Source: a virus
Reading direction: 5' to 3' (one strand)
Virus record (IMG/VR): IMGVR_UViG_3300043773_002546
Coordinates: 133,310-197,309 of that record
Length of the DNA: 64,000 nt
Both the position numbers and the translations under genes were made by a program. Position 1 is the first letter of the stretch. Each line of letters opens with the position of its first letter. Of this stretch, positions 1,105 to 61,186 are shown piece by piece. A model generated the notes under the pieces. That model was not told where the DNA came from. It searched no databases and saw only the letters and a program-made list of their open reading frames with translations.

Positions 1105-1150
1105 TGATTGATATCAATGTGCGGCGTAACTTTACCGAGCGGGAAAGTTC

Positions 1151-2173
1151 GTGATGTTTGACCTCCTAAAATGGCAAAATGTTCCCGAGCGGGTAAGCAC
1201 GCTGTTGGCGACAGCCGAGCAGGTGCGGTCTGCCCATTTCAAAGCTGCCAGCGCCGCGGGAATTCTGCCGCTGAGCCTGGTGACCTGGGAGCCGGAAAAC
1301 GGCGGCATCTCGGTTTACACGCCGCACAAACTGGCAGAGAAGACAGCCGACGCCTATGTGGCGGCCTTCCACTACCCGACTGAATCAATCATTCTTCGCG
1401 AGTTTGCCAATCAGCAGCCGGACTGGACGAAAGAAATCGGCGTCAAACGCGGGGCCGCTATTCCGGGCGTGAAGCATCTCTTTGAGGGCGGCAACGCGCT
1501 GCTACTTGGTCCGACACCTTTGTCCAACGGCATTGTTTCAGCGTTGATGCTTGGCGGCCTGGGCTACGGTGTTGGGACCGCGGCCGAGCACTTGTTCCCC
1601 GCGCGTTACATGCAGCGCGGTAAACTCCGCCGCACCTTGGGCATTGCTGGCGCGCTGGGCGGAGCTGGCCTGGGCGCCGCAAACGCTTACGCCAACAGCC
1701 GCGCCATGGACTCGAGCTTTCTCGAGGGCCTGATCACTAATAACAAGACGCTTCCTCCGTATCTTAAAGAGTACGAGAAGCAGAGCGCCTTTGGCTCTTT
1801 TACACACCCCGACGGCACGGGACTGTGGGCGCCAAGCGTGCCGGTTCCGCAGTTTAATTCAATGGTCTGGAACGACGTTAACAAGGGGCGGTACAGCCCC
1901 TATGGCGGCCACACGTCGCCGTCAATCGGCGCGGCGACCACGGGTTTCATGAGCGGACTAGCGACGCAAAACCGCAGCCCAATCATTTCTCCTGCGACAG
2001 TTATTAACGGCATTGCTTCGGCTGGGGTGGGGCTGGCAACGGCCAACATCGCGGGCCGAGCGCTTTCAGCGCTGGCGGGTCTAACCCCCGAAGCCCAAAA
2101 CAAACTCCAGGACATGGGGCTTTACGGCGGCATGCTCCACGCGATTGTGCCGTCGATGTTCGGCGGGCGGTAG
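1151..2173 (+). CDS. Glycine-zipper-rich, Cys-free hypothetical protein (candidate internal virion/ejection protein)
   Basis: 340 aa with hydrophobic GxxxG segments (LMLGGLGYGVG, GIAGALGGAGLGAA); K-x-A-type motifs FKAA, EKTA, EKQSA; no Cys. Confidence 0.6.
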   Translation: MMFDLLKWQNVPERVSTLLATAEQVRSAHFKAASAAGILPLSLVTWEPENGGISVYTPHKLAEKTADAYVAAFHYPTESIILREFANQQPDWTKEIGVKRGAAIPGVKHLFEGGNALLLGPTPLSNGIVSALMLGGLGYGVGTAAEHLFPARYMQRGKLRRTLGIAGALGGAGLGAANAYANSRAMDSSFLEGLITNNKTLPPYLKEYEKQSAFGSFTHPDGTGLWAPSVPVPQFNSMVWNDVNKGRYSPYGGHTSPSIGAATTGFMSGLATQNRSPIISPATVINGIASAGVGLATANIAGRALSALAGLTPEAQNKLQDMGLYGGMLHAIVPSMFGGR

Positions 2174-2234
2174 ATTGCGCAAAATGCGGGGACATGACAC
2201 AATTGACTGAGCCAAACCGGCAGGAGGTGCTTTT

Positions 2235-2603
2235 ATGGCGATGAAGAAAAGTGCGCAGACTGTGCGCGAAGAATTGCGTGTTCTTAACGCTGCCGCGGAT
2301 GACGTGGCCAGCAGCAATATGAACGAGTGGCTGACGCCTGAATTTTGGGCCACGGCCGCAACGGTCGTCACCAACATGGTGGCGGTTGGTGTGCTTCTTG
2401 GCTGGGTTCGGGCGTCCGAGGCGGAAACGCTTACCACGGTCCTCACGGGCCTGGTCAGCGCTACCAGCGCCATCGTGACCAACGGCCTGGTGATCTGGAA
2501 GTTTATCGCGTCCCGGACCGCGGTGAAGGAATCGATGATCGACGCCCGCTTCCGCTACATGGAAGCGATCGCGGTTGAAAAAATTCGCGCCGAGAAAGAA
2601 TGA
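2235..2603 (+). CDS. Holin-like membrane protein
   Basis: SD AGGAGG upstream; 122 aa with two hydrophobic segments after a TPEFW motif and a charged C-terminus; sits before two protease genes. Confidence 0.45.
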   Translation: MAMKKSAQTVREELRVLNAAADDVASSNMNEWLTPEFWATAATVVTNMVAVGVLLGWVRASEAETLTTVLTGLVSATSAIVTNGLVIWKFIASRTAVKESMIDARFRYMEAIAVEKIRAEKE

Positions 2604-3013
2604 GCGTGAACACGGACGATCTTCAGCATCGGATCGAATCGTCTGCGGCCTTGAAGCGCGCGGCCGGGCAACTTCGCGATGAGGTGGCTTTCCGCGCCGA
2701 CAAGTCCGTGGAATTCGATCCGATGCTGATTATTATGATTGTTTCAATCATCGTGCAGCTCATTATTCACTGCCGTGAAACCAATACCAGCGACGAGGTG
2801 CGGCAGAACATCCGCGACCTCCGCGCGCTGCCGGTTAGGCGTTTGCTCCGCCTGCGGCGTAAACTAAATACGTTGTGGCGCGAGAAGTGTCGGGGCTCGG
2901 AGGTCCAGCCGGACAACCCGCTTCTGGCCGCCGTCTACGAACTCTCGGAAACCGCCGACGACGCGGCGATTGATGAAATCATGCGGCTCGCGGAGAACTC
3001 CGGCGCCGCCTAA
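2600..3013 (+). CDS. Hypothetical protein with one hydrophobic helix
   Basis: ATGA overlap with the previous stop; FDPMLIIMIVSIIVQLIIHC segment. Confidence 0.6.
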   Translation: MSVNTDDLQHRIESSAALKRAAGQLRDEVAFRADKSVEFDPMLIIMIVSIIVQLIIHCRETNTSDEVRQNIRDLRALPVRRLLRLRRKLNTLWREKCRGSEVQPDNPLLAAVYELSETADDAAIDEIMRLAENSGAA

Positions 3014-3041
3014 CAATATTACTCGCAAGGATGCGAACTAT

Positions 3042-3854
3042 ATGGCACGGACGCCACCCGCACAGCATGTCTTGCCGACGTCGGAAATTCTGCGAAAGCT
3101 ACACGGCTTTGGCTACTTCGGCGACAAGACCTGGGCTCAGGTTCGCAACATCAAAGGCACCGAGCTGACGAAAGCTATTCGTGAGTACCAGCGCTTTCAC
3201 GGCTTAGATCCCAACGGCCAAGTGAATCCGCAGACGGCGCACGTCTTAGAGCGCCGCCGCTGCGGTTTGCCGGATTTCAACTTTTCGGCGGGCGACCGGG
3301 TCTGCAAGTGGCCCCATCGCGACATCAAGTACTACGCCGACATCAAGCTGCCCGGAATCAGCGACGAGCAGGCCAAGCAAGCCTACGACATCGCTTTTGC
3401 CCAATGGGCGGCCGTGTGCAACATTGAGCCCGTGCCGGTGGACTCGCACACCAAGGCGAACATCTACGCGCGCAGCGGCGTGGGTAAGAAAAACGGCTTA
3501 GACAATCGCGGCGGCACGCTTGCTTGGAGCGAGTTGCCCTGCGACGTGCACGAAAACATTCAGCTCGATCAGATGTACGACGAGGCGGAAGCGTGGAGCT
3601 TTAATATGGCCGTCGCCGTAATCTGCCACGAGGTCGGGCACGCGCTGGGGCTGCCGCATTTGGCCAACGGCAATCTTATGGCGCCCTACTACGACCCGAA
3701 CGTTACCGCGCCCCAGGAAGGCGACATCCGGGAAATTGTGGATCTTTACGGCAAGCGCAAAAAGCCGTATTCGTCGATGAAAGACTCGTCGGTGCATCTG
3801 GGCGGCACGCTTATTATCAACGGCAAACCGTACGTGCTCGTTCCGAAAACCTGA
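3042..3854 (+). CDS. Matrixin (M10/MMP-like) zinc metalloprotease with propeptide and cysteine switch
   Basis: HEVGHALGLPH (HExxHxxGxxH), Met-turn LMAP, RRCGLPD cysteine switch, N-terminal PG_binding_1/MMP-prodomain-like helices (AIREYQRFHGLDPNGQV). Start placed at ATG 3042 after AAGGA; the track start 2970 overlaps the upstream gene. Confidence 0.9.
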   Translation: MARTPPAQHVLPTSEILRKLHGFGYFGDKTWAQVRNIKGTELTKAIREYQRFHGLDPNGQVNPQTAHVLERRRCGLPDFNFSAGDRVCKWPHRDIKYYADIKLPGISDEQAKQAYDIAFAQWAAVCNIEPVPVDSHTKANIYARSGVGKKNGLDNRGGTLAWSELPCDVHENIQLDQMYDEAEAWSFNMAVAVICHEVGHALGLPHLANGNLMAPYYDPNVTAPQEGDIREIVDLYGKRKKPYSSMKDSSVHLGGTLIINGKPYVLVPKT

Positions 3855-3858
3855 CGTT

Positions 3859-3867
3859 TGCTATAAT
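3859..3867 (+). promoter_or_regulatory. Putative extended -10 promoter (TG-n-TATAAT)
   Basis: TTTGCTATAATC in the 3854-3903 intergenic gap, upstream of GGAGG and ATG 3903. Confidence 0.5.
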
Positions 3868-3902
3868 CGCCGAAAACGGCCCTTTCGAGGCATGGAGGCG
3901 AT

Positions 3903-4190
3903 ATGACTACGTTTCAGTTAACGGCGTTGTTGCTGTTTGGCGCGACCTTGGCGGCCACGAAGCGCCTAGAGTTGACCAGCTTTGTCAACGGGCTGCTGGC
4001 AAAGCTTCGCCCCGGTGTAAAGCCTGTTCCGGCGCCTGATGCGACGGACCACGCACAGGAACTGGTGAGCGATTTGGTGCAGGTCGCCGCGCTGCGAGAC
4101 CGGTTGGAGGCCGACGGGTGCAAGGACGGCGCCGAGGCCTGCACAGTGCTGTTGCGCATCCTGGTGGAATACCGTCCGAACAAGGGCTGA
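3903..4190 (+). CDS. Small protein with N-terminal hydrophobic anchor
   Basis: SD GGAGG; MTTFQLTALLLFGATLAA N-terminus. Confidence 0.65.
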   Translation: MTTFQLTALLLFGATLAATKRLELTSFVNGLLAKLRPGVKPVPAPDATDHAQELVSDLVQVAALRDRLEADGCKDGAEACTVLLRILVEYRPNKG

Positions 4191-4194
4191 AACC

Positions 4195-7919: not shown

Positions 7920-8842
7920 GCACAAAACAAGCGGGCATCGGTGATTTTCTGTTTCCCGGAGTTTTCGGCCCGGATAACCATCCGGCCATGCAAGCCGCCG
8001 CCGAAGCACGAGAAAAGCTTAAGCAGCAGACAGAAAGCGCCCTGACAAGCCACTACGGCCAGAACATGCGTCAAATGCTCGGCTACGGCCTGGCGGGCGG
8101 CGCTGGCGCCACGGCGCTGTACCATGCCTTGCGCGCCCTGAGAAAGCCCAAGAAGAGCGAGACGAAGTACGACGAGATGAACTCTGGCGCTCCAGTGATG
8201 GCTAAGGAAGCCCTCAGCCTGGACGAAATGCTGGGAAAGCTCGTGCCTACGACCATGACCGGTCTGCCTAGTGGCGATGGTGCCGGTAACGGCGGCGCCC
8301 CGGCGGCGCCAGGACTTCCGGCGGACCCGCACATGTACCGTCCGACGTGGGCTGCACTGGCCGCGCTGGGCGCTGGCGGCTTAGGGCTCTATGGCGGCAA
8401 TAAGGCTGTCGGCGCGCTGGTCAACCGTAATAAGAAAAAAGATAGTCAGGCGGAAATCGACGAGGCCCGCAAAGCCTATTACGACGCCTTGCTGGGCGGC
8501 GATAAGAAAGCTGCTGCGCTAGACGACGTGTACGCTGCTTGGCAAGAGAAGCATGCCAACCCGCTGACGACTGTCCGCGACGCCTTTAACTCGACCGCCG
8601 ATTTCTTTGGTAGGACAGTTCCTCAAAGCGCGCACGCCCTGGCGCTGCTTGGCGCTTTGGGCGGCGGGGCGTACAGCGCCAAAAAGATGTACGACTGGAC
8701 CAAGTCCCGCAGCGAGGGCGAGAATCTCCGCAAAGCCCAGGCATCTAAGGCGCGGATGAAGGGCTTGCCAACGACGTGGGTGGATCCTGAAGAGCTGACG
8801 CGGATTAAAGAACTCGCGGCGCAAGCTGACAATGAGCAGTAA
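7916..8842 (+). CDS. Glycine-zipper, Cys-free protein with K-x-A-delimited segments (candidate ejection protein)
   Basis: ATG 7916 overlaps the upstream stop (ATGA); begins MSTKQAG; three Gly-rich hydrophobic helices, each segment preceded by KQA, KEA or KKAA/EKHA. Confidence 0.6.
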   Translation: MSTKQAGIGDFLFPGVFGPDNHPAMQAAAEAREKLKQQTESALTSHYGQNMRQMLGYGLAGGAGATALYHALRALRKPKKSETKYDEMNSGAPVMAKEALSLDEMLGKLVPTTMTGLPSGDGAGNGGAPAAPGLPADPHMYRPTWAALAALGAGGLGLYGGNKAVGALVNRNKKKDSQAEIDEARKAYYDALLGGDKKAAALDDVYAAWQEKHANPLTTVRDAFNSTADFFGRTVPQSAHALALLGALGGGAYSAKKMYDWTKSRSEGENLRKAQASKARMKGLPTTWVDPEELTRIKELAAQADNEQ

Positions 8843-8844: not shown

Positions 8845-11800
8845 ATGCCAGATCCGATCAATCTAGCGCCCGCTCAGCCTCCGCAGCGCGCATTCGGCGA
8901 CGTTAACGCACTGCGCAATAATATCTTTGAGCGGTCGTTACAACACGCCTCGACGCTCGAGCCTATCAAGAATGACCTGTACACGCTCCAGCTGAGCGAC
9001 GTGCAGTACAAGGGCCCGGAGCGCTACACGAAGGCCGACCAGAAGAAAGCCGTGCTCACTCGCGGCTCGTTGGCCCGCAAGCTTGTGGGCACCTGGAACC
9101 TCGTTGACAACAAGACCGGCCAGCAGGTTGCCCAGCGTCAGCAGACGATCGCTAGCGTGCCATACCTGACCGACAGCGGCACGTTTGTGAACAAGGGCGT
9201 GGAGTACACCCTGGCGCACCAGATGCGGCTGCGGCCCGGCGTGTTCACCCGCGAGAAAGACAACGGCGAGCTAGAGGCGCATGTTAACGTGCTGCCCGGC
9301 AAGGGCCGCATGCACCGGTACTTCCTCGACCCGAAGACGGGCGTGATGAAGATCAACATTGGCCAAGCGCAGATTCCGCTTATGCCGCTCTTAAAAACGC
9401 TGGGCGTTAGCGAGGGCGATATTCGCAAGTCGTGGGGTAACGAGCTGACGGCCGTGAACATGCAGCAGGGCGACGCGGGCACGCTCGACAAGCTTTATCA
9501 GCGCCTGGTGTACAAGCAAGAGCCTGGCAGCGACGCCTTGGCCAAGCAGAAGGCCATCGCCGCTGAGTTCGCCAAGATTGAGCTGGACCCCGAGGTTACC
9601 AAGCGGACTCTCGGCCAGCCCTACACCCGCATGACGCCCGAGGTCATTCTGGCGACGACAAAAAAGCTCATTGCGCTAAACCGCAAGGAAACCGACCCGG
9701 ACGATCGCGATTCGCTGGCTTACCAGTCGGTCGTTGGCCCCGAGGACCTGCTCTCGGAGCGCTTTACCAAGGACAAGGCCACGCTGCGTCAGCTGCTCTG
9801 GAAAGCCACGGCCAAGAAAAGCCTCGACCATATTCCTACGGGCGTGTTCAACAAAGCGCTCAACGCCGCGCTGATCGGCTCCGGGTTGGGCAGCTCACTC
9901 GAGGAGATTAACCCCGCAGAGATCTTCGACCATCAGACCCGCGTGACGCGACTTGGCGAGGGCGGCATCGGCTCGCTCGACGCCGTGCCCCAGGAATCCC
10001 GCAGCGTGCAGCCAAGCCACTTGGGTTTTGTGGATTTTCTGCGGACTCCCGAGTCTGGCAAAGTCGGCGTCGACATGCGTTTTAGCCGCGGCGCCATGAA
10101 GGGCAGAGACGGCAAGATTTACACGCCAGTAGTGAACATGCAAACCGGCGCTACGGAGTACAAGACGCCCCAAGAACTGGCGGATACGCCGTTGGCTTTT
10201 CCTGGCGAAGAGAAGAGCAAGCTCCCGATGGTTGCGGCGCTGGTGGGCGGCAAGATGAAGTACGTCCCCCGTGAAGAAGCGCAGTTCTCGCTGCCGCACA
10301 TGGACAACTCTTTTTCGGCGCTCTCGAATATGGTCCCCATGAAGAGCATGATGAAGGGACACCGAGTGATCATGGGCAGCCGCATGTTCACGCAGGCACT
10401 GCCGCTGGTGGACGCCGAGGCGCCGCTGGTGCAGTCCGCCCGGGCCGACAACCCCGGTGAAAGCCACGAGGACGAGATGGGCGGCAAACTCGGCGCCGTC
10501 CGTGCCGACGTTCACGGCCAGGTGGTCTCTGTCTCGTCTGATGAGATCGTCGTTCGCGACCGTGACGGCAATAAGAAAAGCATCGAACTCTACAACGACA
10601 TGCCGTTTAACCGGAAGACTTTCTGGACGCAGAAGCCCACGGTTCAACCCGGCGATACGATCAAGCCCGGCCAGCTGCTCGCGCATTCCAACTTCACTGA
10701 TAAGCAAGGAACAGCGGCGCTGGGCAAGAATCTCCGTGTGGCGTATGTGCCCTTCCGCGGCAAGAACTACGAAGACGCCGTGGTCATCAGTGAGTCAGCA
10801 GCCAAGCGCCTCACGAGCGAGCACATGTACCAGCACGAGGCCGAATGGGACGACCAGACCCACGTCGGCAAGAAGGCGTTTCTGTCTTTGTTTCCGGGCG
10901 AGTACGACAAGAAGGCGCTCGCCAACTTCGACGACAAGGGCGCCATCCAGAAGGGCACGGTCGTGAACTATGGCGACCCGCTTGTGCTCCAGGCCAAGGC
11001 GAAAGAGACAACTTACGGCAAGGTTCATCGCGGCCGCGCCGGAAACTTCACCAACGAGACACTCACCTGGGAGCACCACACGCCGGGCGTCGTGACCGAC
11101 GTCGAACACACCGACAAGGGCGTCAGCGTTGTAGTCAAAAGCCAGGCGCAGATGGAGGTCGGCGACAAGCTCACCGGTCGCTTCGGCGACAAGGGCGTTG
11201 TGGCCGACGTGATTCCGGACCACCAGATGCCCCAGGACAAAGACGGCAATCCGTACGAGGTCCTCGTCTCGCCGCTGGGCCTAATCTCCCGCGTGAACCC
11301 CTCGCAGGTCATCGAAGCCGCGCTGGGCAAAGTCGCTGCGAAGACCGGCCAGCCCTTCAAGCTCAAGGACTTCGATGACGAGAACGACCTGATTGAGATG
11401 GCGCAGCGGGAGCTGGCTAAGCACGGGTTGAGCGATACCGAGGACCTCACCGACCCGGAGACCGGGCGAAAGATCAAAGGCGTGCTCACCGGCAGCCGCT
11501 TCTTTATGAAGCTCCATCACACGGCCGAGGGCAAAGGGCAGGGCCGCGCGATGGGCAGCTATACCGCCGAGGGCACTCCGGCCAAGGGCGGCAGTGAAGG
11601 CGCCAAGCGCGTCGGCATGCTCGACCTGGGCGCGCTTTTGTCCCACGGCGCCGGAAAGGTCATCCGCGACGCCAAAATGGTCCGCGGCCAGGCTAACCCC
11701 GAGTACTGGTCGCAGTTCATGGCCGGGTATACCCCGCCGCTGCCAAAAGTCCCGCACGTCTACGAGAAGTTTGTCGGGCAGCTCAAAGCTTCTGGCATTA

Positions 11801-13964: not shown

Positions 13965-14202
13965 ATTAACTCACAACCTGCAGCCTCACGAACAGTCGGC
14001 TCAGTCGATCATTCTGTATGACGATCTGGGAAATCCGATTTTCGTGGCCATGCAGCTTGATGAGTCGATTATCTACGCCGACGCCGGAGAGCCTGATTTT
14101 CACGCTATGCTTCGCGCCTTGGGCGTGAACAAAACAGTCATCGTCAACGAGATCACGCCAAAGCCCGTCAAGAACATGCTGTGGACGCCGGGAAATGCTT
14201 AA
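13954..14202 (+). CDS. Small hypothetical protein between the RNAP genes
   Basis: 82 aa, GTG start, overlaps both neighbours. Confidence 0.55.
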   Translation: MRVKLTHNLQPHEQSAQSIILYDDLGNPIFVAMQLDESIIYADAGEPDFHAMLRALGVNKTVIVNEITPKPVKNMLWTPGNA

Positions 14203-49605: not shown

Positions 49606-49614
49606 GAGCACAAC

Positions 49615-50082
49615 ATGGGACAAAGCAGCCCCAAAGGCAAAGTCGACGGCAAGTTTGAGGCCCGCACGCAGGACCTGGAAAGTTCTGCGCAGCAGATCTC
49701 TCAAGCCTTTAAGGACGTCTCCCAGCCGCGGCCTTGGCACACCCCCAAAGAGCTCAAAGAACGCGAACTGCTCGATGTGCCAGGATTGCACGAGCCGGTG
49801 TGGAACCGCAACGACATCAACAAGATCTACTCCGAAGAAGTTCTCGGCGGGTCCAAAGACAAAAGCGGAACCGTAGGTGACCTAATCGCCATGAAGTGGC
49901 AGGCGGACTTCATGGCCGCCGAGGAGCGCGCTTTCCGCATGCGGCACGCCAGCTTTGTGCGCTGCGCTTGTCTAATGCACGGGCGGCTAGACGGCCACGG
50001 CAAGCCGGAGAAAGGCATATTCTCCTACCTTAAAAAAGCCGTGCAGAGCTACATCGACACTGGTCGCGCTAACGGAGGCTGA
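49615..50082 (+). CDS. Hypothetical protein
   Basis: SD AGGAG; 155 aa. Confidence 0.6.
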   Translation: MGQSSPKGKVDGKFEARTQDLESSAQQISQAFKDVSQPRPWHTPKELKERELLDVPGLHEPVWNRNDINKIYSEEVLGGSKDKSGTVGDLIAMKWQADFMAAEERAFRMRHASFVRCACLMHGRLDGHGKPEKGIFSYLKKAVQSYIDTGRANGG

Positions 50083-50084
50083 GC

Positions 50085-50552
50085 ATGGCACTGCAAGATT
50101 ACGCAAACCGTAAGTACGACTACCTGGCCTTCCGCGGCGTGGCCGCCGAAGGCGACGCGAAGCTGGGTCTGGCGCTGTATAGCGAGGACACCAGCGGGCA
50201 GATTTGCACGGGCATCCAGAAACTGTCCCAGCGCTGGGCCCTGGAGTTTCTCACTGAAAAAGGTTCCATGCCCGGCAATCCGGAACGCGGCTGCGATTTC
50301 ATGACGTTTGTGCGCCAAGGGCGGCTTCGCACGCAGGTGGACGTAATATCGACTTTTAACACCGCCAATTTGTTTATTACCCGCAACCTGCGCAACGAAG
50401 AGTACGCCGATATGCCCGCTGATGAGCGGTTTGCGTCGTCAGAAATCCTCTCGGTCGCGATCCTGCCCGGGTATGTTAACTTGAGTGTCATGATTACCAG
50501 CCGCGCCGGTGACGAGCGCGCCGTTATCCTCCCAATTTCCACGTTGCCGTAG
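50085..50552 (+). CDS. Baseplate wedge protein, gp25/GPW-like
   Basis: 155 aa; GIQKLSQRWALEFLTEKGS...RGCDF pattern; directly before the J-like gene. Confidence 0.7.
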   Translation: MALQDYANRKYDYLAFRGVAAEGDAKLGLALYSEDTSGQICTGIQKLSQRWALEFLTEKGSMPGNPERGCDFMTFVRQGRLRTQVDVISTFNTANLFITRNLRNEEYADMPADERFASSEILSVAILPGYVNLSVMITSRAGDERAVILPISTLP

Positions 50553-50560
50553 GTGCGTTT

Positions 50561-52213: not shown

Positions 52214-53797
52214 ATGGCGCCCCCCACCTACCCGAATTCCGACCTGGATCGCAGCAGCACGCTCATGTACGCGCTGGGCACATTCTGGTCGCGGACCTAC
52301 GAAGCCGCCGACCAGGTACGGTCCTACGCCGAAGGAACCGCGTTACAGGTGGCCCAAGCCCAGCGGGACCTTTTGGAAACCGTGGCGACCCTGAGCCGCT
52401 ACGACGTGCCGCTGTATCACACGGAACACTGGACTCCCATTGTGCTGCGCAAAAGCCAGCGCAACAGCGTGGCCACGAACATCATGCAGTTCAATAAGAA
52501 CAGCGCCGCCTTTGACGACGGGCGGCACACGTTCGACTCGGCGACGACGATGGCCTACTACGCCTATCCGCTGCCGGAGAACATGGCGGGCGTAGCGCAG
52601 ATTTTCAACAAACTCATCCAGCCGACCCTGGCCCTGGTTGAGGGCGTCGATTATCTCATTGATATCAATCGCGGGGCGTTAATTTTTATCAACGACCCTT
52701 TTGATAGCCCAGAGACTATCAAAAAACCTGTTTCTGATAGGGCAAAGGCTATCGACGACGAGGAGATCGTCCTCTGGGGCTTTCAGGGCAAGTTCGACTA
52801 CGCCGAGGTTTACAACCAGTTCGCCTACGCTATCAACTTGCGCCTGCGCACCAGTCAGGGCTACAAGGACCTGACCAATGCGGTGATCTCCGGGCTCATC
52901 AACGGCGGCGCCACAGCGGCAGACCTGGACCTGGCCCTCTCGGCGATCTGCGACGTGCCGGTGGCCCGCGAGCGCCAAGAAACCGTCGAGCTAGTCCGCC
53001 GCGATGCCCGCGGCCTGGTGATCGCCACGGACCGCCAGGTCTATCGTTTTGGTGAAGACGCCGAGCCCTTGGTAGCGGTCGGGGACGCCTTGCGGGCGGG
53101 GGACCGGCTAGTCCGCGCCTTCGATGTCGTAGAGCTTAACCAAGGCGGCGTGGTAGACGAGATCGCCGCGCTGGCGTTAGACGCCGGATATCTCTCGGCG
53201 TGCTTCTACGGTGACTTGGTTTTTGAAAACAAATCCGTCCCGCTGGAAGTTAACACGGCGCACCCGTTGGGCTACACCTATGTGCAGTTTCGCCTGGGTG
53301 GGTTTCCCCTGGACGCACAGCGCTTCTTTGACGAGATTCACGAGCGCGGCGTGCAAGCGGCCGAGATTGTGCCAGACCCCTGCGACCGCAGGAACCGCAA
53401 ACTGGGCACGCTGGCGCACCTCCTGGACAGGCGTAAGAACCCTGACGGCGAGCCCACGGCGGCGAATCTGCCCAAGACTATTAACCCGTTGAAATTTATT
53501 GTGGAAAACGTGCTGCGTAACAACGTGTTTCTGGTGCAAATCAGGGTCGGCGCATTGGGGCAAAATCGGCTGGGATTGTACAATATCAGGCATCTGCGTC
53601 AGCTTTTGCCGCCGCAGTCGGCTATGATCGTGATCTTCTCCATGCAGGCCCGGCAAAGCGTCTTAAGCGCCGCGCAGAACCTGCAGGAGGCCGTGCGGAC
53701 GTTTACCGGCGCCGAGCCCCTGGCCGACGTTGTTTACGACAGCATGGTGCGGGACGCGAACGTGACCGTCCGCCGGATTTCAGGGACCTGCCAGTAA
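52214..53797 (+). CDS. Baseplate wedge protein (gp7/I-like)
   Basis: 527 aa after the J-like gene; DLDLALSAICDVP segment. Confidence 0.55.
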   Translation: MAPPTYPNSDLDRSSTLMYALGTFWSRTYEAADQVRSYAEGTALQVAQAQRDLLETVATLSRYDVPLYHTEHWTPIVLRKSQRNSVATNIMQFNKNSAAFDDGRHTFDSATTMAYYAYPLPENMAGVAQIFNKLIQPTLALVEGVDYLIDINRGALIFINDPFDSPETIKKPVSDRAKAIDDEEIVLWGFQGKFDYAEVYNQFAYAINLRLRTSQGYKDLTNAVISGLINGGATAADLDLALSAICDVPVARERQETVELVRRDARGLVIATDRQVYRFGEDAEPLVAVGDALRAGDRLVRAFDVVELNQGGVVDEIAALALDAGYLSACFYGDLVFENKSVPLEVNTAHPLGYTYVQFRLGGFPLDAQRFFDEIHERGVQAAEIVPDPCDRRNRKLGTLAHLLDRRKNPDGEPTAANLPKTINPLKFIVENVLRNNVFLVQIRVGALGQNRLGLYNIRHLRQLLPPQSAMIVIFSMQARQSVLSAAQNLQEAVRTFTGAEPLADVVYDSMVRDANVTVRRISGTCQ

Positions 53798-53808
53798 GGG
53801 AGCCACGG

Positions 53809-54420
53809 ATGGCCAAAGACTCGATTTCAGGCGTGCGCGGTCGGGTGACGCTGTGGCGGGTGACCGATTCCGGACTGACGCTGCCGGTCCACACTCAACC
53901 CAACCAGATTCAGTATTCCTGGGGCACAATCGCCGCCCGGCAGATCGGCTACCGGCGCCAAGCTGGTCGCCCGGACTACCACGTCTCGGCGATGTACATC
54001 GAGTACGAGAACGTAGCGACCCCAGAGGACCCGGTCACCGAGGACGATAACTTTGACCGGACACTGGGCATTGAGCACTACAACGCCCTAAGCGGCAGCC
54101 GAGATTACCTTCGCGTGGCGCTGACTTTGGAGCCCACTTTGGGGATCTCCACAGATTACGCTGAGTACTTCACTCCCGGCGAAAACGGCAACCAGTTGAC
54201 GTTCTTCGCCCAGAGCTCCGGCACCGCAGGCGTCAACGCCCTGCCGTTCAGCCACGCGGTTAACAGCAAGGTCTACGCCGCGGCATTAGTTGCCACTCCG
54301 GACTTTAACGACCGCACCAAGGACGTAGTCTTCGCCCGCACGGTGTTCGATCTCGAGGACCAGATCACCAAAGAAGCCTCATCGCAAATCGGCATCACCT
54401 GGGATATCGCATTCGAATAA
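53809..54420 (+). CDS. Putative baseplate-fibre attachment protein
   Basis: 203 aa beta-rich, ends QIGITWDIAF; lies between wedge and fibre genes. Confidence 0.5.
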   Translation: MAKDSISGVRGRVTLWRVTDSGLTLPVHTQPNQIQYSWGTIAARQIGYRRQAGRPDYHVSAMYIEYENVATPEDPVTEDDNFDRTLGIEHYNALSGSRDYLRVALTLEPTLGISTDYAEYFTPGENGNQLTFFAQSSGTAGVNALPFSHAVNSKVYAAALVATPDFNDRTKDVVFARTVFDLEDQITKEASSQIGITWDIAFE

Positions 54421-54462
54421 CGCGCTTGCACAGCACTCTGTGACACGCCTGGGAGGACAAGG

Positions 54463-56355
54463 ATGTCCGCAAACTGGCTGAACAACATTAAACACGTGGC
54501 TCCGGGCGAACCCGTCAAAGCGGGCGTCGTCGGGCGGCCGGACCAGGCGCTAGACGCACGGACTGAATATCTCCGCCAGCGGCTCGACGCCGCCGAGCTG
54601 GGCCGGGCCGTGTTTGATACCAATGCCACCGTGGCCCCTAGCGTGCTTGAAGGCCAGCCGGTTTTTTGGAACGCCACAGCGCAACGCTATGAGCAGGCTT
54701 TCGCCGCCGTCGAGACCGACCAGGTCACCGGCGCGTTGGTGCCGCAGCCGTCGGCGGACTGTGTGGGCATCTGCGCTAAGAAGCACAGCGACAGCCTGGC
54801 CGATATCGTGCTTTACGGCCTGATCCGCCTACCCGTGCTGACCAACGCTATTCCCGGCCCCATCTCGGCCGGGCGGTATTACCTCTCGGCCGTCACGCCG
54901 GGCCAGCTCGTCAAGCAACGCCCCGGCGTGACCGTGAGCGTGTGCTACGTGCAGGGCGTTAAGGACAACTGCGCCGACGATCCCTGGGTTATCGTCATGC
55001 CGCAGATGCGCGACTTCCTTGAAGATCACATCCACTACCGTTTTGAGCTGGCGGCGCGACCGGCTGGCTCCCATGACCCGGACGCAGCGGCCGTGGCAGG
55101 CGTGCATACGATTGACGAGCCGGACGCGTCTCTACCCGGCTGGCTTCCGGCCGATCACCAGGTCTTCAACGACAAGGCGCCCGAAGGCGCCAAGTTCGGC
55201 TACAACTTTTCGCATGACGAAGCTCTGGCCCGCGTCTGGCCGCCGATGCCGTTGCAGGCGGTGGCCATGCTCTGGGACAAGGGGGTGGACTACGTCGGCG
55301 CCACGGAGATCCCACTGGGCGTCGACGACAAGCTGTGCGTGGTCAACCGCGACGGCATCTGGTGGATGAAGGACTGCTACGGGGACGTGCCCTGGCCCGC
55401 GGACCTCAACACCGTCCCAACCAGCGAGAGCGAGTCGTCGACTTCCGAGGCTTCCTGCCCGCGCACCGAGCGCATGCGGGTCATCGTGGTCTTTCTGCGG
55501 ATGCTCTTCGGCAACGACAAGAGCGTCGTTACCAGCCTTAAGCCCGCCGTGGACAGCCCGATTACCATCGCTAACTGCGACGGCCTTCGGGCCACGCAAG
55601 ATAAACCCCTCACCGGCGACCTGGAGCTCGGCCTGGACCTGGAGCTCATGGAAGACCCGGCCGAGGCTTTCGGCGGGCGAGCCTACAAGGAGATCACCAC
55701 CGGCTACAAGCTCAAAAAGGGTTGGGTAGCCGAAGGTCTTCGCGTCGGCTACGGCCCGATCGTGCTCAACGGTACTCGAGACCGTGCTTTGTCAACCGCC
55801 GAGAAGACAGCGCTGGGCCTGCCCGCCAACAGCACCTCGCGGCTCTACCAGGGCATTGTCACGGTGAACTACGACGACCAATTTGTCGAGCGTGAGATCT
55901 CTCCGCAGATCATCCGCCTCTCGGACGTGTTGGAACGGCTGTACCTAGATATTCCTTATCTGGGTTTTCCGGAAGGCCAGGACTCTCTGGTTCGCGTGCG
56001 TCTGAACATCCCGGCGGCCAACTTGGGCGAGACGCTCGAGATGAAGATCCGCGCGCAGATCTTTGGCCGCGCAGGTGGCGTGAGCACGGCCGTGCTCCTG
56101 CCGCCGATGCAGATGTTCTACCGCATCCTGCCGCGGCCCGACGGAACGACGCCGTTGGCCACCAGCGACACAGAGATTACCTTCGACAGCGAGGTGAGCC
56201 TGAACATCGACACGCCCACGGAAATCGAGAGCCAGGCCTTCTCGGTCAGCGAGGGGGATACAGTCCTGCTCACCATGAGCCGCGAGGGAACCGGCGACAG
56301 TTACGACGCGGAGGTTGGCCTGTTAAGGCTGGCTGGCATCGTCTACGTCCCGTGA
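54463..56355 (+). CDS. Putative proximal tail-fibre or baseplate protein
   Basis: SD GGAGG; 630 aa; GQPVFWN...VGIC...GRYYLS cement-like beta module; SESESS linker. Confidence 0.55.
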   Translation: MSANWLNNIKHVAPGEPVKAGVVGRPDQALDARTEYLRQRLDAAELGRAVFDTNATVAPSVLEGQPVFWNATAQRYEQAFAAVETDQVTGALVPQPSADCVGICAKKHSDSLADIVLYGLIRLPVLTNAIPGPISAGRYYLSAVTPGQLVKQRPGVTVSVCYVQGVKDNCADDPWVIVMPQMRDFLEDHIHYRFELAARPAGSHDPDAAAVAGVHTIDEPDASLPGWLPADHQVFNDKAPEGAKFGYNFSHDEALARVWPPMPLQAVAMLWDKGVDYVGATEIPLGVDDKLCVVNRDGIWWMKDCYGDVPWPADLNTVPTSESESSTSEASCPRTERMRVIVVFLRMLFGNDKSVVTSLKPAVDSPITIANCDGLRATQDKPLTGDLELGLDLELMEDPAEAFGGRAYKEITTGYKLKKGWVAEGLRVGYGPIVLNGTRDRALSTAEKTALGLPANSTSRLYQGIVTVNYDDQFVEREISPQIIRLSDVLERLYLDIPYLGFPEGQDSLVRVRLNIPAANLGETLEMKIRAQIFGRAGGVSTAVLLPPMQMFYRILPRPDGTTPLATSDTEITFDSEVSLNIDTPTEIESQAFSVSEGDTVLLTMSREGTGDSYDAEVGLLRLAGIVYVP

Positions 56356-56369
56356 CCAGGAGGTGACCC

Positions 56370-57311
56370 TTGGCTATCGGGAACTGGAATCTACAGTGGC
56401 TTAATCATAATTCGCAGCGGTCTTACCCGCTGACGGAGAAAGCCACCAAGACGGACACACTCGCCGCAATCCGCCTGCCGGACAGCTTCCTTTTGGCGCT
56501 GTACTTCCCGGTGCACGCGGGGCTCGACGTGACGCCAGACCGGTTTTTCTTGAAGACCGTGCTGATTACGCCCACCGGCTACAACCTGGCAATTGGCTAC
56601 GACGACGGCAGCACGGTCACCGACGCAGCCGCAGTAAACATCGCTAAGAGCGTGCACGTCCCCAACCGAACCTACGCCCTGTCGGGCTTGGACAGTTTTG
56701 CCGACTGCGTAGGTCAAGTAGTCATCGGCAAGCTCGACGAAATCGACAAGCTGCCGCCGGGTCTGTACACGTTCGATTACGCGGGCGGCGCCCTGGAAAG
56801 CGACGCCGTTCGGCCGATGATCCGCGGCGTCTCCAGCCTGCGCGTAGCCAACGGCAGCGAGCTATCTGATCGGCTCTATGGTGACATCACTTTAATCGCC
56901 GGGACTAATATGCGTCTGGGCGTAGGTAGCGGGGTAGACGGCCCGGAGATCGTCTTTAACGCCATCAACGGCGAGAACCTTAATACAGACTGCATCTGCC
57001 AGGTGCCGAACACGGGCGAGTGCATCCGCTGCATCAACGGCGTGTGCAGCGACGACGGCACGTTCACCTTTGGCCAGGGGACGTGTATCGAGATCACGCC
57101 TACCGCCAACGGACTGATTTTTACCGACACCTGCGCTCAGCCCTGCTGCGGTTGCGAAGAGCTTGACGCGCTGAACGGCCAAATTGACCGCTTCAGCGAC
57201 GGAGTTAACACGCTGCAGAACTTCGTGACGCGGCTCAGCTCGGAAGTGACGCAGATGAGCCTGGTCGTGCTGGGCAGCCGCCTGGGCGACTCGGGCTGCA
57301 GCAGATGCTAA
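56370..57311 (+). CDS. Cys-rich tail-fibre-like paralog 1
   Basis: SD AGGAGGTG, TTG start; WLNHNSQRSYPL; CINGV motif; CAQPCCGC. Confidence 0.6.
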   Translation: MAIGNWNLQWLNHNSQRSYPLTEKATKTDTLAAIRLPDSFLLALYFPVHAGLDVTPDRFFLKTVLITPTGYNLAIGYDDGSTVTDAAAVNIAKSVHVPNRTYALSGLDSFADCVGQVVIGKLDEIDKLPPGLYTFDYAGGALESDAVRPMIRGVSSLRVANGSELSDRLYGDITLIAGTNMRLGVGSGVDGPEIVFNAINGENLNTDCICQVPNTGECIRCINGVCSDDGTFTFGQGTCIEITPTANGLIFTDTCAQPCCGCEELDALNGQIDRFSDGVNTLQNFVTRLSSEVTQMSLVVLGSRLGDSGCSRC

Positions 57312-57320
57312 GGGCGCCTT

Positions 57321-58805
57321 ATGAGTTGCGAAGAATTTGTCATCTCGGCTGACGGCCGCAAAGGCATCGGCGTTGTTCAGCCACAAAGCGGCCTGGATTT
57401 TCCGTTCGTTGCCCCGTCAGACGACGTAGCGTTGTTGCTGGCGGATTTTCACTTGGCTTACGACGACCCCGGCTATTACACCGCCAGCGGCACGCCGCAG
57501 TTCGTCCACCCCCTGCGCATTGAGTGGCTCTACGGCATCGGCTGCGACGAGAGCGAATCGTCCGCGAGCGAATCTGCGCCGCACTCCGCCGACTTGCGGG
57601 TGATCGACGCCAACGACGCCGTGGTCTTTGACTCGACCGCGGCCGTTTACTTTGACCGGCACGCCTGGAGCGCGGACTACGAAATCATTGAGTGGCGCAC
57701 GGCAGACGCCGTCTGCCGGGCCGTGGCCTACACCAGCTGGGCTTCATCCTTCGTGCCCCATAACTTCCCGCTGTTCTTCTATCCCGAAAACGCCGTGCTC
57801 GACGAGCGAGCCGTGCAAAAGCTCCCCCGGCGGGTGCGCTCAATCAAGGTCCGGCAAGGCAACCTCGTTATGGGTACGCCGATCGCTTTTGGAAGCGGCC
57901 GGTTTGAGGCTGGCTACAACATGACGCTAACCGTAACCGGGCCCACGACAACTGCGCTGCGCCGCAACACGAACATTACTTTCGTGGCCGAAGGGCGTAA
58001 GGAATACAACGACTGCAACGACGAGCCAAGCGAGCCGGTCATTTCCATCAACGGCGTGAACGGAAAGGGCGGCGATTTCACCTTAACCGGCGCCGAGTGC
58101 ATCTACACGCGACGGCCCACGACCCTGGGCGATGACACGGTTACTCCGCAACAGTACTTTGGCGCCAACGGCTACTACAAGATCGGCAGCGACTGCCCGG
58201 CTTGCTGCGACTGCCCAGACTACGTCGAGTCGGCGACCTACATGAATCGCATTCGAAACCGGTACAAGACTATTGGCAAACGAACGCACGACGTCAAGCT
58301 TTTACACGAAGAGAACATCCAACGCTGGATCGAGAGCCGCGAGTGCCGCCTAGAGAAACCGCTGAAGATCGTCATGACGCCCCAGTGCTGCCCGCTCATG
58401 GACGTCTTGGTGATGTATTGCAACCAGTGCCAGAGCTGCGCCGAGGACGTGGTTCTTAACATCGCCTTTGGCTCTTTCCCAGGGGGCACGCTGGGTACGC
58501 CCCAGTGCGGCTTCACAGTCATGTACGCCCCCGGCGTTAGCGGCGAAAAAGTGCTCCTGCAGGGCGCATGGCCCAACTTCTCCGTGGCGTTGCCTCCGGT
58601 GGATGTGGGCAACAGCGCCTACGTGAAATTCCGCCTAAAGTTCGACCCAAAGAATTACCCCTACGCCATTAACGGCACGCTCACCGGGACCAAAGGCGAC
58701 GGACCAATCCGCGCCGGGTGCGACGAGAGCAAACCTGCCGCCGTGGCCTTCGCCGTCAAGACACTTAACTGCAACGCCGAAGGCAACAACATCGAGGCTT
58801 GCTAA
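57321..58805 (+). CDS. Cys-rich tail-fibre-like paralog 2
   Basis: GLDFPF; SINGVNGKGGDFTL; CPACCDC; ESESS linker. Confidence 0.6.
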   Translation: MSCEEFVISADGRKGIGVVQPQSGLDFPFVAPSDDVALLLADFHLAYDDPGYYTASGTPQFVHPLRIEWLYGIGCDESESSASESAPHSADLRVIDANDAVVFDSTAAVYFDRHAWSADYEIIEWRTADAVCRAVAYTSWASSFVPHNFPLFFYPENAVLDERAVQKLPRRVRSIKVRQGNLVMGTPIAFGSGRFEAGYNMTLTVTGPTTTALRRNTNITFVAEGRKEYNDCNDEPSEPVISINGVNGKGGDFTLTGAECIYTRRPTTLGDDTVTPQQYFGANGYYKIGSDCPACCDCPDYVESATYMNRIRNRYKTIGKRTHDVKLLHEENIQRWIESRECRLEKPLKIVMTPQCCPLMDVLVMYCNQCQSCAEDVVLNIAFGSFPGGTLGTPQCGFTVMYAPGVSGEKVLLQGAWPNFSVALPPVDVGNSAYVKFRLKFDPKNYPYAINGTLTGTKGDGPIRAGCDESKPAAVAFAVKTLNCNAEGNNIEAC

Positions 58806-58808
58806 CTC

Positions 58809-60416
58809 ATGCCCACGCGCAACCAAAACTGGTACGACCTGCAGTCCGGACGGCGGTATCCGCTGGACGATCGCAGCACCGGTGTCGACGACGCGGGCAG
58901 CCCGATCGAGGACGATGTGCTGGCCGACTGTCACTTGCGTTTTCCCTCAACCCTGGGCGCGCACGCCTTTGTGCAGGGCATCACCGTTACGCCCGCGCTA
59001 GTAACCGTAATCTTCGGCGTGGCCGAGACGCTGGAGGACACAGAGGGGCCGTCGATCGCCGCGCTTTCGGTGCCGCGAGCCACATTGGCGGCAGGCGTAA
59101 ACTACACCGTCCGTCCGTTGGTGCCCGGCGTGGCAGGTTGGGTAGCGTTCAGCCAGGGAATCCATGAGAGCTTCGTCGGACGCTACAGCACGCCGATCCA
59201 GACGCTTATCGCGCCGCGCTGCGCTCGGCCCTATACTCCGCTGCCGATCCCGACCCTGGGCAAGCAGAACCTGGCCACGTCGCTTGAAGGCCTGGTCACG
59301 CTCTTGGGCGTGCCGCCGGTCGAAGCGTTTTACGACGAAGTAACAATCGAGGGCAACCCGGCGCGGGCCATCGTCTTCCGGCTGCTCACGGAGTTTAACG
59401 GCGACAACCCACTCGAGACGTTCCTGGGCGCCTGCGGCGAGCGGCCCGAAAGTGGTACTTGCCCCAAGCCGCCGATCGAGACCATCAACGGCGTGTCGCC
59501 GGACTGTGACGGCAACATCAACTTGGTGTTCGACGGGTTCGCGGCCCTTCCGTTTGCCGACTGCGGCGGTATCGACATCCTTGCCAGCACTGGCCTGGCG
59601 GAAGCTTGCGCCGCAGCCGACCCGCCGCCTTACCGCCGCCCCCAGGATAACTGCAACCCGCTGGGGTCCAGTGCCGCCGACGACGACAACTGGTACGACC
59701 CGATCGACCAGATCCCCCCGGACGTTATCGAGTCGGAGAGCTTGCCTGACCCGGGTTACTCTGAAAGCTGTGCCGTGGTGCCCACTTGCGTGGACTTTGC
59801 CGACGGCACCTCCGGCGGTCGTTTTAACGGAATCTCCGGACTGTTCGTCTATGAGACTACAGATGCCCCTTACGGCTGTACCCTGGACGAGAGCGAGTCT
59901 GTGAGTTCGCTAGCGCCGCACTACACCTACACCGCCGCCAGCGGCGTGGGCCGGAATATCGCCCTGTTCCGCAACTGCCCCAGCGATTGGGCTTTTGATC
60001 GCACGATCACTACTGAGCTGAAAATCGGCACGGGCGGTTTGCGGCGCAACGGCGGCTTGGTACTGAACTACCTCCAGGCCGTGCCCTACCTGCAGATTCC
60101 CACGCGCTACCTGGTGGCCTTGATTGACGGGGAGACCAACAAGCTCAAGGTCTTGCGGATCAACGGCACGGCCACGGTCGTCGAGCAGGAGACGGACCTC
60201 ACCGTTATCCCAGGGCACTGGTATCGACTGTCCGCAGAAACGCTTGACGCGGGCGGCTCGGTGGTGCTCAACGTGACAGCGGACGCCATAGACCTGGTTA
60301 TGCCCAGTGCGTCGCTGTCGGTAGCCATCAGCAACTACGGCAGTTACACCGGACTGGCAGGGCTTTTCAGCGACCGGTCGTACACGTATTTCAACCTGTT
60401 TAAGGTGGAAAGCTAA
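58809..60416 (+). CDS. Cys-rich tail-fibre-like paralog 3 with C-terminal beta-sandwich domain
   Basis: WYDLQSGRRYPL; TINGVSPDCDGNINL; beta-rich C-terminal domain. Confidence 0.6.
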   Translation: MPTRNQNWYDLQSGRRYPLDDRSTGVDDAGSPIEDDVLADCHLRFPSTLGAHAFVQGITVTPALVTVIFGVAETLEDTEGPSIAALSVPRATLAAGVNYTVRPLVPGVAGWVAFSQGIHESFVGRYSTPIQTLIAPRCARPYTPLPIPTLGKQNLATSLEGLVTLLGVPPVEAFYDEVTIEGNPARAIVFRLLTEFNGDNPLETFLGACGERPESGTCPKPPIETINGVSPDCDGNINLVFDGFAALPFADCGGIDILASTGLAEACAAADPPPYRRPQDNCNPLGSSAADDDNWYDPIDQIPPDVIESESLPDPGYSESCAVVPTCVDFADGTSGGRFNGISGLFVYETTDAPYGCTLDESESVSSLAPHYTYTAASGVGRNIALFRNCPSDWAFDRTITTELKIGTGGLRRNGGLVLNYLQAVPYLQIPTRYLVALIDGETNKLKVLRINGTATVVEQETDLTVIPGHWYRLSAETLDAGGSVVLNVTADAIDLVMPSASLSVAISNYGSYTGLAGLFSDRSYTYFNLFKVES

Positions 60417-61186
60417 TGGCTGGTACACGCATTATTTTCCCGCAGTTTCGCGACGAGCAGCAGGACTCGCGCTACCCGTTCGTCGACAAGGCAACGCTCG
60501 TCTCCACAGAAAACGCTTTGGAGATCGGCCGTGACACCTTTATCGACGCGGCGATCTACGCCATCGGCGGGTACGCCCGGGCATACATTTCGGCGGTGAC
60601 CGTTAGCGCCAGCGAGATCGCGATCACCGTCGGCGACGAGAACAACAAGACACGCGCTACGGCCCGCTGGGTCCCCGCCAGTCCGCCTGCTAACGGCGTA
60701 CTAGACCTCTTGGACAGTTACGGCCGCCCGGCGGGCATGCTTCTTTCAACACCGCTGCACCTGGCCCGTTTCGCCGCCTGGCCCGCGCGAACTCACACTT
60801 TTGCCCTGGCCGCCACGGAGTTCGTGAACACCTGCGTTATTCCGGCCCGCGAACCAGGCGTGCGCGGGCTCATCGCCGCCGACAGCACACTGCTGACCGG
60901 CGACGTGTGGCTCATTGGCGACCGGGGCGTTGTGGTGCGCCAAGACGGCGAGGGCGTTATCCGCATTGATATCATTGGCTCGCCGCTGTTTTTGCGCGAG
61001 CTGTGCGACGATCTTAACAAGTTCACCCCCAAAACTTTTATCAAAACCATTAACGGCTGCACGGCGGACGAGTATGGTAACTTTACGTTAACCGCTACCG
61101 GCCACAACGCCGCGGACACGGTGCTGCGGATCTACCCCAGCGACGGTAACCTGAAAATCGACGTGATCGGCAAGAAGGTGGTGTAG
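60416..61186 (+). CDS. Tail-fibre-like paralog 4
   Basis: FRDEQQDSRYPF; TINGCTADEYGNFTL. Confidence 0.6.
   Translation: MAGTRIIFPQFRDEQQDSRYPFVDKATLVSTENALEIGRDTFIDAAIYAIGGYARAYISAVTVSASEIAITVGDENNKTRATARWVPASPPANGVLDLLDSYGRPAGMLLSTPLHLARFAAWPARTHTFALAATEFVNTCVIPAREPGVRGLIAADSTLLTGDVWLIGDRGVVVRQDGEGVIRIDIIGSPLFLRELCDDLNKFTPKTFIKTINGCTADEYGNFTLTATGHNAADTVLRIYPSDGNLKIDVIGKKVV

Follow-up and report, generated by a model that had tools for sequence, protein, structure and literature searches.

The genomes of Cluster O mycobacteriophages (Corndog and its relatives) contain a 17-bp dyad repeat, TGTTCGGNNNCCGAACA, in 34 copies in ~70 kb; a dimeric binder was inferred by the authors, and the function of the repeat is unexplained (PMC4351075). 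Cluster A mycobacteriophages, such as L5 and Bxb1, carry stoperators, 20–30 repressor sites spread genome-wide and mostly located outside promoters; these are 13–14 bp long, lack dyad symmetry, follow the direction of transcription and are recognised by a monomer, and the phages that carry them are temperate and have a known repressor (PMC6550527, PMC9283540). In plasmid RK2, the OB operators are palindromic loading points for KorB, a ParB-family CTPase whose dimer then acts at a distance along the DNA (PMC11790492). Here we describe an array of palindromes, called lattice sites, in a stretch of 64,000 nucleotides (the window) of an uncultured phage, corresponding to bases 133310–197309 of the IMG/VR record IMGVR_UViG_3300043773_002546 (197,309 bp; 96% complete). 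An AT-rich palindrome, ATTGATATCAAT, dispersed in and between the genes of the window, had been pointed out in an earlier note on this DNA, and the whole 197-kb genome (G000; 59% GC) holds 40 sites of the class. The sites are probably docking points, on double-stranded DNA, for a two-fold symmetric protein, which is a candidate for a genome-wide role.

Scattered palindromes are found also in the matS/MatP, SlmA-SBS and Noc-NBS systems, in which words of 12–16 bp, present in tens of copies in and between genes and read by dimers, organise or mark a chromosome region. These are host chromosomal systems limited to particular macrodomains, and Noc is a ParB relative. The lattice resembles them in the scattering of its palindromes; the search for homologues covered the ParB_N domain only, which was not found. 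In RK2, 12 OB sites occur in 60 kb, near promoters. The lattice is likewise made by dispersed palindromes (12–18 bp, 40 copies), but half of them reside in genes, and ParB_N was not found in five genomes of the phage group. A clamp-loading model would explain selection for genome coverage rather than for promoter placement.

The lattice shares with the Cluster O repeats a single dyad word present in more than 30 copies genome-wide, in intergenic DNA, at gene 5' ends and in gene interiors, with positions largely shared between related phages and, for the most part, no promoter association; the class so defined is a descriptive one only. The arms of Cluster O repeats are GC-rich and separated by a 3-bp spacer; the repeat does not vary within a genome, and all five phages spell it alike. 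In contrast, the lattice word has no spacer, is AT-rich in a 59% GC genome, and has degenerate halves; its spelling switches between lineages, with turnover of the sites, its spacing is measurably even, and it resides in a ~200-kb phage endowed with a multisubunit RNA polymerase. Stoperators resemble the lattice in their genome-wide spread, and in having a motif which differs between related phages with different repressors. Lattice sites depart from the published definition of stoperators (PMC6550527) in being two-fold symmetric and in having flanks without strand-specific signal. Many of them, moreover, lie deep in genes.

Frequency, codon cost and spacing of the sites

When every GATATC of G000 is read with its flanks, an 18-bp palindromic consensus is obtained, the halves of which are CTCATTGAT and ATCAATGAG. 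For counting, lattice sites were defined as W3-GATATC-W3. The 40 sites of G000 correspond to 40 of its 75 GATATC hexamers, and compare with ~0.4 expected from base composition by our own estimate. Stricter forms are also numerous (31 TGATATCA, 21 TTGATATCAA, 9 exact 12-mers), and no other 8-mer or 10-mer family is as over-represented in the genome. In the window, exact and one-mismatch copies of ATTGATATCAAT number 6, against 0.04 expected from dinucleotide shuffles, none of 100 of which contains 6.

Enrichment persists in coding DNA under the codon-aware null model called for by the earlier note. Synonymous codons were shuffled within each gene, preserving every protein and the codon usage: W3-GATATC-W3 sites in genes are 24, against 1.2 expected (maximum 6 in 300 shuffles), TGATATCA elements 17 against 1.7, exact 12-mers 4 against 0.08. 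Under a whole-codon shuffle, the expectation for in-gene W3-GATATC-W3 drops to 0.12. The 35 GATATC outside the lattice approach the expected frequency (in genes, 33 are left without lattice sites, against 21–26 expected); GATATC by itself is therefore not avoided, nor enriched in general.

These counts bear on a reading of the sites as enzyme targets, either of an EcoRV-like methylase/restriction pair or of a site-specific nicking or cutting enzyme involved in replication, recombination or packaging. EcoRV recognises GATATC, the invariant core, and SbcC/Rad50-like and nuclease-related proteins are encoded by the phage (SMC_N, G000 56339–58519; DUF1016_N, 73811–74740). Yet GATATC outside the lattice is found at the expected frequency, specificity reaches well beyond the hexamer, and a palindromic cutter would break both strands approximately every 5 kb. 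The Dam/EcoRV methylase family PF02086 was not found in five genomes, a result which concerns the Dam/D12 class only. Enzyme targets are a very improbable explanation.

Sites located in genes weigh on codon choice. GAT ATC is in phase 0 at 17 of the 19 sites lying deep in genes, which encode x-(I/N/K/F/L)-D-I-(N/I/K/F)-x; of the other frames, one includes TGA, and the remaining one requires the rare codon ATA. The earlier note had remarked that in-gene copies impose GAT and AAT where GAC and AAC are preferred, and codon usage bears this out: GAT makes up 24% of Asp codons, AAT 23% of Asn codons, and ATT 38% of Ile codons in G000.

Sites occur at a density of about one per 5 kb in G000, and are spaced more evenly than by uniform placement. 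The coefficient of variation (CV) of the gaps is 0.66 in G000 (P=0.004 versus uniform placement) and 0.59 in the related genome G003 (P=5e-5). The lattice is strongly non-random, and is not the product of chance or coding.

Sites in the window

By the W3-GATATC-W3 definition, the window contains 7 sites. Six had been reported earlier and were all found in place, with one start moved by a nucleotide (24663–24674, not 24664); the seventh, at 14408, had been overlooked. The extended palindromes described at two of them are perfect, spanning 18 bp at 30675–30692 and 14 bp at 40771–40784. Sites 1107 and 30678 are intergenic, as reported, and the others reside in open reading frames (ORFs), with GAT ATC in frame. 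Sites are listed below; no strand is assigned to them.

1107–1118: exact ATTGATATCAAT; intergenic, 41 nt upstream of ORF 1151–2173; context ATG ATTGATATCAAT GTG
14408–14419: CTC AAA GATATC AAA CCG; in frame (L-K-D-I-K-P) in ORF 14195–16099, the rest of RNA polymerase beta'
24663–24674: GGG TTTGATATCAAT GGG, one-mismatch copy of ATTGATATCAAT and 16-bp palindrome; in frame in ORF 23844–25316
30675–30692: CCCATTGATATCAATGGG, perfect 18-bp palindrome with exact ATTGATATCAAT at 30678; intergenic, 9 nt past the stop codon of ORF 29655–30671
40769–40786: CTC ATT GAT ATC AAT GTC, with exact ATTGATATCAAT at 40772; in ORF 40616–41596 (L-I-D-I-N-V)
52655–52672: CTC ATT GAT ATC AAT CGC, with exact ATTGATATCAAT at 52658; in ORF 52214–53797 (L-I-D-I-N-R)
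60965–60976: CGC ATTGATATCATT GGC, one mismatch; in ORF 60416–61186 (R-I-D-I-I-G)

Symmetry of the site and folding of its transcripts

Changes in the two arms were compared in four genomes. At every variable position, symmetric pairs at ±4 to ±9 match the expectation for independent halves; in G003, for example, 24 of 49 sites are symmetric at ±5, against 22.8 expected. As the halves agree at the product of half-site frequencies, the arms are read independently, and are not constrained to pair. Information is limited to positions −7 to +7 in the 169 sites of the four genomes, and extends from −9 to +9 in G000. The likeness of the halves to the FNR half-site, noted earlier, is superficial, because the lattice word has no spacer and carries information out to ±9.

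Any palindrome is able to fold, and the sites may in principle act as structures, either as RNA hairpins (terminators, processing or stability elements) or as DNA hairpins or cruciforms. If all genes are taken to lie on the + strand, every site would be transcribed as a potential hairpin, and the perfect 18-mer folds at −6.6 kcal/mol. On the other hand, no excess of complementary changes in the arms was observed in the four genomes. G003-type sites fold at −3.7 kcal/mol; in the commonest variant, CTCAAT...AATGAG, an A-A mismatch interrupts the would-be stem, and only −2.7 kcal/mol is reached. At 6 of the 7 window sites, shuffled sequence folds at least as stably as the local RNA. Intrinsic terminators combine a GC-rich stem-loop with a T-run; stems of the lattice are AT-rich (−2.7 to −6.6 kcal/mol), T residues are not enriched downstream, and neither a T-run nor a fixed-distance element was found around the 169 sites. 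An Rfam search of the window gave no match. Within each genome, the sequence itself is kept, and not merely the ability to pair. The hairpin interpretation is thus largely refuted, and may be given hardly any credit. Judged from the independence of the halves, the lack of a T-run and the weakness of the hairpins, a symmetric protein on double-stranded DNA would fit the data, whereas an RNA or DNA hairpin would not.

Lattices in related phages

The phage genome carries 203 of its 214 genes on the + strand, according to a simple codon-usage gene call. It encodes a multisubunit RNA polymerase, in which beta is fused to part of beta' (window 8845–13218), the remaining part of beta' being encoded at 14195–16099. 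Tail-sheath-like and further structural genes are also found in the window. Among cultured phages, the closest are Salmonella phage Arash and Vibrio phage D69, with ~32% RNA polymerase identity and a different organisation; megablast against GenBank phages gave no match. A polymerase search identified 56 related loci, five of which were fetched as complete or near-complete genomes, and five more were scanned for the pattern. Relatives with 82–84% polymerase identity bear arrays of similar density, with one site per 3.2–4.6 kb:

G003: 49 sites in 204 kb
G006: 40 sites in 127 kb
G007: 40 sites in 154 kb
G008: 30 sites in 119 kb
G009: 27 sites in 107 kb
G010: 19 sites in 87 kb

In the sister phages the site is spelled A-W-A-GATATC-T-W-T (half-site V-A-W-A-GAT). 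The two spellings diverge at position −4, which is T in 86% of G000 halves and A in 85–92% of the halves of the other genomes, and G000 half-sites add C-T-C at −9 to −7. Five sister phages, which share ~72% protein identity with one another, use one spelling, and G000 alone deviates.

Different spellings might reflect different hosts, if the reader was of host origin (nucleoid-associated protein, global regulator, or factor involved in Chi-like nuclease control). This would agree with the lack of phage-encoded DNA-binding domains in the ~110 proteins scanned (see below), and with the occurrence of the exact 18-mer in non-coding contexts of a few high-GC proteobacterial contigs (L236, L169, L251, L242). 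However, no multi-copy bacterial genome or metagenome contig is present among the matches listed, most high-GC matches are coding LIDINE/LNDINE peptides or duplicates of one contig, and the uniform spelling of the five sisters, from which only G000 departs, is at odds with the idea. Searches for the exact word in viral, metagenome and genome collections gave only single matches, which were unrelated. A host reader seems improbable, and the binder would be phage-encoded rather than derived from the host, with fair likelihood.

The word CTCATTGATATCATTGAG is found exact in homologous non-coding stretches of the alphaproteobacterial contigs L236 (2150–2340) and L169, flanked by the inverted repeat CCGTCGGACTT ... 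AAGTCCGACAGG. An operator or a small mobile element may be present there.

Site positions were compared by mapping through orthologous proteins (the median protein identity between G000 and G003 is 60%). Sites of these two genomes lie within 50 bp of each other in 11 cases, against 0.9 expected, and within 1 kb in 28, against 16 expected; figures are similar for G007. Intergenic sites of G000 are kept, in re-spelled form, in 9 of 12 cases in G003, 5 of 8 in G006, and 6 of 8 in G007. Sites in genes are kept less often, in 4 of 19, 1 of 10 and 5 of 16 cases, respectively. Loss of the motif at orthologous positions, which the earlier note set against its own proposal, is therefore seen for part of the sites: intergenic sites are kept, in-gene sites turn over, and the array as a whole is kept. 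Flanks may be identical and the site changed, as in G000 CTGCGG TTTGATATCAAA TCGCGC and G003 CTGCGG AAAGATATCTTT TCGCGC.

In the window, the place of site 1107 is occupied in G003, G006 and G007 by elements spelled AAAGATATCTAT or AAAGATATCTTT, and a re-spelled site is found in the same three genomes in the intergenic region hosting site 30678. The coding site 14408 has identical or near-identical counterparts at orthologous codons of G006 and G007; G003 encodes the same peptide through GAC ATC, and has no site. At site 60965, the corresponding codons of G003 read ATAGATATCATT, and a G007 site maps to this position. Counterparts of sites 40772 and 52658 are displaced by 0.4–1.3 kb in relatives. 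At the former, the G003 orthologue has GTT GAC GTC, and relatives carry sites 0.4–0.9 kb off (mapped 41180–41655); at the latter, the exact position is not kept, and sites map at 51385–51995. Site 24663 is unique to G000, as no site was found at that position in the relatives compared. The whole region mapped to the window includes 10 sites in G000, against 16–19 in relatives.

Where relatives share a site, the G000 peptide is often identical or similar and written in preferred codons, and the site is missing. At mapped position 51856, FTKISF is encoded in both, and the site is found in relatives and not in G000; at 32361, relatives have AAA GAT ATC TAT (KDIY), and G000 AAG GAC ACC TAC (KDTY). 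Such cases suggest that sites of the old spelling may have decayed after a change of specificity, and that sites of the new spelling may have been built nearby.

More distant relatives differ. G001 features an excess of GATATC (79, against 45 expected), in which W3 flanks are one-sided in 35 cases and two-sided in 10; the lattice may have descended from such one-sided sites, or they may represent its degeneration. The longest enriched form in G001 (L076–L085) is GTTTAGATATC. G004 has no lattice, and no GATATC excess like that of G001. The top words of G004 and G001, TACAGGWCCTGTA, CAGTTGGWCCAAC and GGCGCTACAGG, were considered as alternative lattices and withdrawn, as they are concentrated in a few genes, where they encode collagen-like repeats. 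These Gly-X-Y repeats, probably parts of fibre genes, dominate the k-mer statistics of both genomes (G004, ~184–187 kb; G001, ~51–52 kb and 64.8–66.3 kb).

For a 139-aa protein encoded at window 18543–18962 (G000 151852–152271), identity reaches 97% in the comparison of G003 with G007; the product of G000 shares only 55% with that of G003, and 73% with that of the distant G001, a pattern suggestive of allele replacement by recombination.

Sites, gene boundaries and promoters

About half of the sites lie in boundary or non-coding DNA, which accounts for 12–14% of each genome, corresponding to a ~4-fold enrichment. In 24 of 86 such sites the dyad is at most 15 nt from the upstream stop codon; part of this closeness is a trivial consequence of the TGA or TAG within the word.

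A bipartite promoter-like motif, GCTAAAT-N16/17-GGCATAT(T/C), is present in 1–7 copies in each of six genomes, including the lattice-less G004, frequently with a short inverted repeat after it. The motif may represent a conserved promoter class of this phage group. Copies in G000 are found at:

window 30693–30720
G000 5545
G000 80919
G000 95802
G000 102993

The first copy adjoins the lattice site 30675–30692 (CTAAAT at 30693, GGCATAT at 30714). A site is found just upstream of 3 of the 5 G000 copies, but of only 1 of 20 copies in five relatives (0 of 5 in G003, 0 of 4 in G001, 0 of 7 in G004); the lattice is therefore not part of the promoter-like motif.

The distribution of the sites is relevant to a second protein-based interpretation, in which the lattice is a stoperator-like, or global transcription-control array, and the bound regulator blocks, insulates or times the host or phage RNA polymerase. 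The protein-binding step is the same as in the docking-site interpretation, and the two differ in function only. A transcriptional role would account for the enrichment at boundaries, for the vicinity to stop codons, and for the sites upstream of G000 promoter-like motifs; nearly all genes lie on one strand, and the positionally conserved sites are the intergenic ones. Cluster A mycobacteriophages provide a precedent, having 20–30 stoperators per genome with motifs that differ with the repressors (PMC6550527). Against such a role, 19 to 24 sites per genome are located deep in genes, including perfect 17–18/18 matches, sites are at no fixed distance from start codons or any promoter element, the promoter-like motifs of relatives stand without adjacent sites, and part of the vicinity to stop codons is intrinsic to the motif. 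Moreover, stoperators are asymmetric and oriented, and lattice sites symmetric. Transcription control as the function of the array is considered rather unlikely, though less so than a host reader.

The words TTAAC or GTTAA are found within 30 nt of 12 of the 40 G000 sites (2.8 expected; P<0.001), including the window sites 1107, 24663, 30678, 40772 and 52658. Distance and orientation vary, and four cases conform to TTAA-N7-TTGAT. No such enrichment was observed near sites of G003, G006 and G007. CtrA boxes of Alphaproteobacteria (TTAA-N7-TTAAC) were considered as the source of these words, and found unsupported: the window contains 2 full boxes, neither of which is at a lattice site, and the lattice word itself does not consist of two TTAA half-sites at 7-nt spacing.

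Search for a binding protein

Candidate binders were sought in several ways. About 110 proteins, among them nearly every one conserved in G003, were scanned against Pfam or PHROG, which identified CsrA, thymidine and thymidylate kinases, a primase, a SNF2 helicase, SbcC/Rad50, ferritin, and many glycosyl- and methyltransferases. Neither a repressor-like nor a helix-turn-helix Pfam domain was found among the ~110 proteins; as many ORFs belong to no family, a repressor may still be encoded.

A phyletic profile (presence in lattice genomes, absence from G001 and G004) is weakened as a search tool because one-sided motifs occur in G001. No binder emerged from the excess divergence of G000 proteins. 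Two small basic proteins restricted to lattice genomes (G000 8356–8664 and 14004–14327) matched nothing in PDB sequence searches or in the ESM Atlas.

The single candidate predicted to be helix-turn-helix-like is the product of G000 21637–22422 (L098:1637–2422), 261 aa long, in which an acidic N-terminus precedes a conserved three-helix domain, a linker rich in Lys, Ala and Pro, and a helical hairpin at the C-terminus. In the AlphaFold model the three-helix domain is confident at residues 110–160, with a predicted local distance difference test (pLDDT) score >90. The best fold matches are the winged-helix domains of ArgR, Fur/Zur and MntR, and ribosomal protein P1, at Z ~5 or Foldseek E>0.3. 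The linker resembles a histone H1 tail, the gene itself holds a lattice site in G000, and proteins 58–67% identical exist on other contigs. It is probably a DNA-binding or nucleoid-type protein. It is not proposed as the binder of the lattice, because it is present in the lattice-less G004 and was not found in G001.

Among the other products, the CsrA homologue, an RNA-binding global regulator (G000 8048–8245; L097:8048–8245; PF02599, E=8e-20), is conserved in G003, G001 and G004. Sugar-nucleotide, glycosyltransferase and methyltransferase genes are found at G000 1847–3925, 37384–38319, 49431–50951 and 53050–54629, as at 93464–95770, 115904–117418, 122675–123079 and 127448–127978. The set includes heptosyltransferase family 9, an epimerase, a HldE-like kinase/adenylyltransferase, GT2, GT8, a cupin and Methyltransf_24, and several members are common only to lattice-bearing relatives.

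Discussion

The earlier note had proposed that the palindromes are binding sites for a dimeric phage or host protein, which might organise, partition, protect or package the genome. The symmetry of the sites and the independence of their halves, the enrichment beyond coding requirements, the conservation of re-spelled sites, and the lack of flanking promoter or terminator signals all agree with dimer binding; the binder itself was not found. Several data weigh against docking sites with a genome-wide role. No DNA-binding domain was detected by Pfam or PHROG scans in the ~110 proteins, and ParB_N (PF02195) had no match at E<=0.01 in G000, G003, G007, G001 and G004, while control genomes matched. 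The protein encoded at G000 21637–22422 has weak fold matches and an unfitting distribution. The evenness of the spacing is moderate (CV ~0.6), with no strict period. Finally, about half of the sites fall in the ~13% of boundary or non-coding DNA, which leaves room for a transcription-linked role. On balance, we still regard protein docking as probable.

A protein bound to the sites would be symmetric, probably a homodimer, each subunit reading one half-site, C-T-C-A-T-T-G-A-T in G000 and V-A-W-A-G-A-T in the sisters. It would mark the whole genome, or load onto it, with a function in organisation, compaction, protection, or genome-wide transcription control. Selection would act on the array as a whole, maintaining about one site per 4–5 kb chromosome-wide, rather than on single promoters. 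Sites would be placed in intergenic DNA, where they are cheap, and elsewhere written into genes as x-(I/N/K/F)-D-I-(N/I/K/F)-x by means of disfavoured codons. In the G000 lineage, the preferred base at ±4 would have switched from A to T, and recognition would have lengthened to 18 bp; old-type in-gene sites would have decayed to preferred codons, and new-type sites arisen nearby.

More speculatively, the docking sites may be the cis half of an undescribed chromosome-marking system of large phages, in which a fast-evolving phage protein, belonging to no recognisable DNA-binding family, loads at ~40 evenly spaced palindromes to coat, compact, protect or self-identify the chromosome. This extension is tentative, and more doubtful than docking as such. 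If it holds, protein and sites would co-evolve, so that sister lineages would hold mutually incompatible spellings, and the principle would be exemplified independently by the Cluster O repeats.

Dispersed dyad repeats had already been described in phages of Cluster O, and their function never explained. The lattice adds an array kept at measurable cost to codon choice and protein sequence, whose density and node positions are conserved despite turnover of the exact sites, and whose spelling has been switched in one lineage. These features predict a co-varying protein, and point to selection for coverage of the whole chromosome rather than for the regulation of single promoters. Identification of the binder could reveal a new way in which large phages organise or label their DNA, and would provide an orthogonal protein-site pair.

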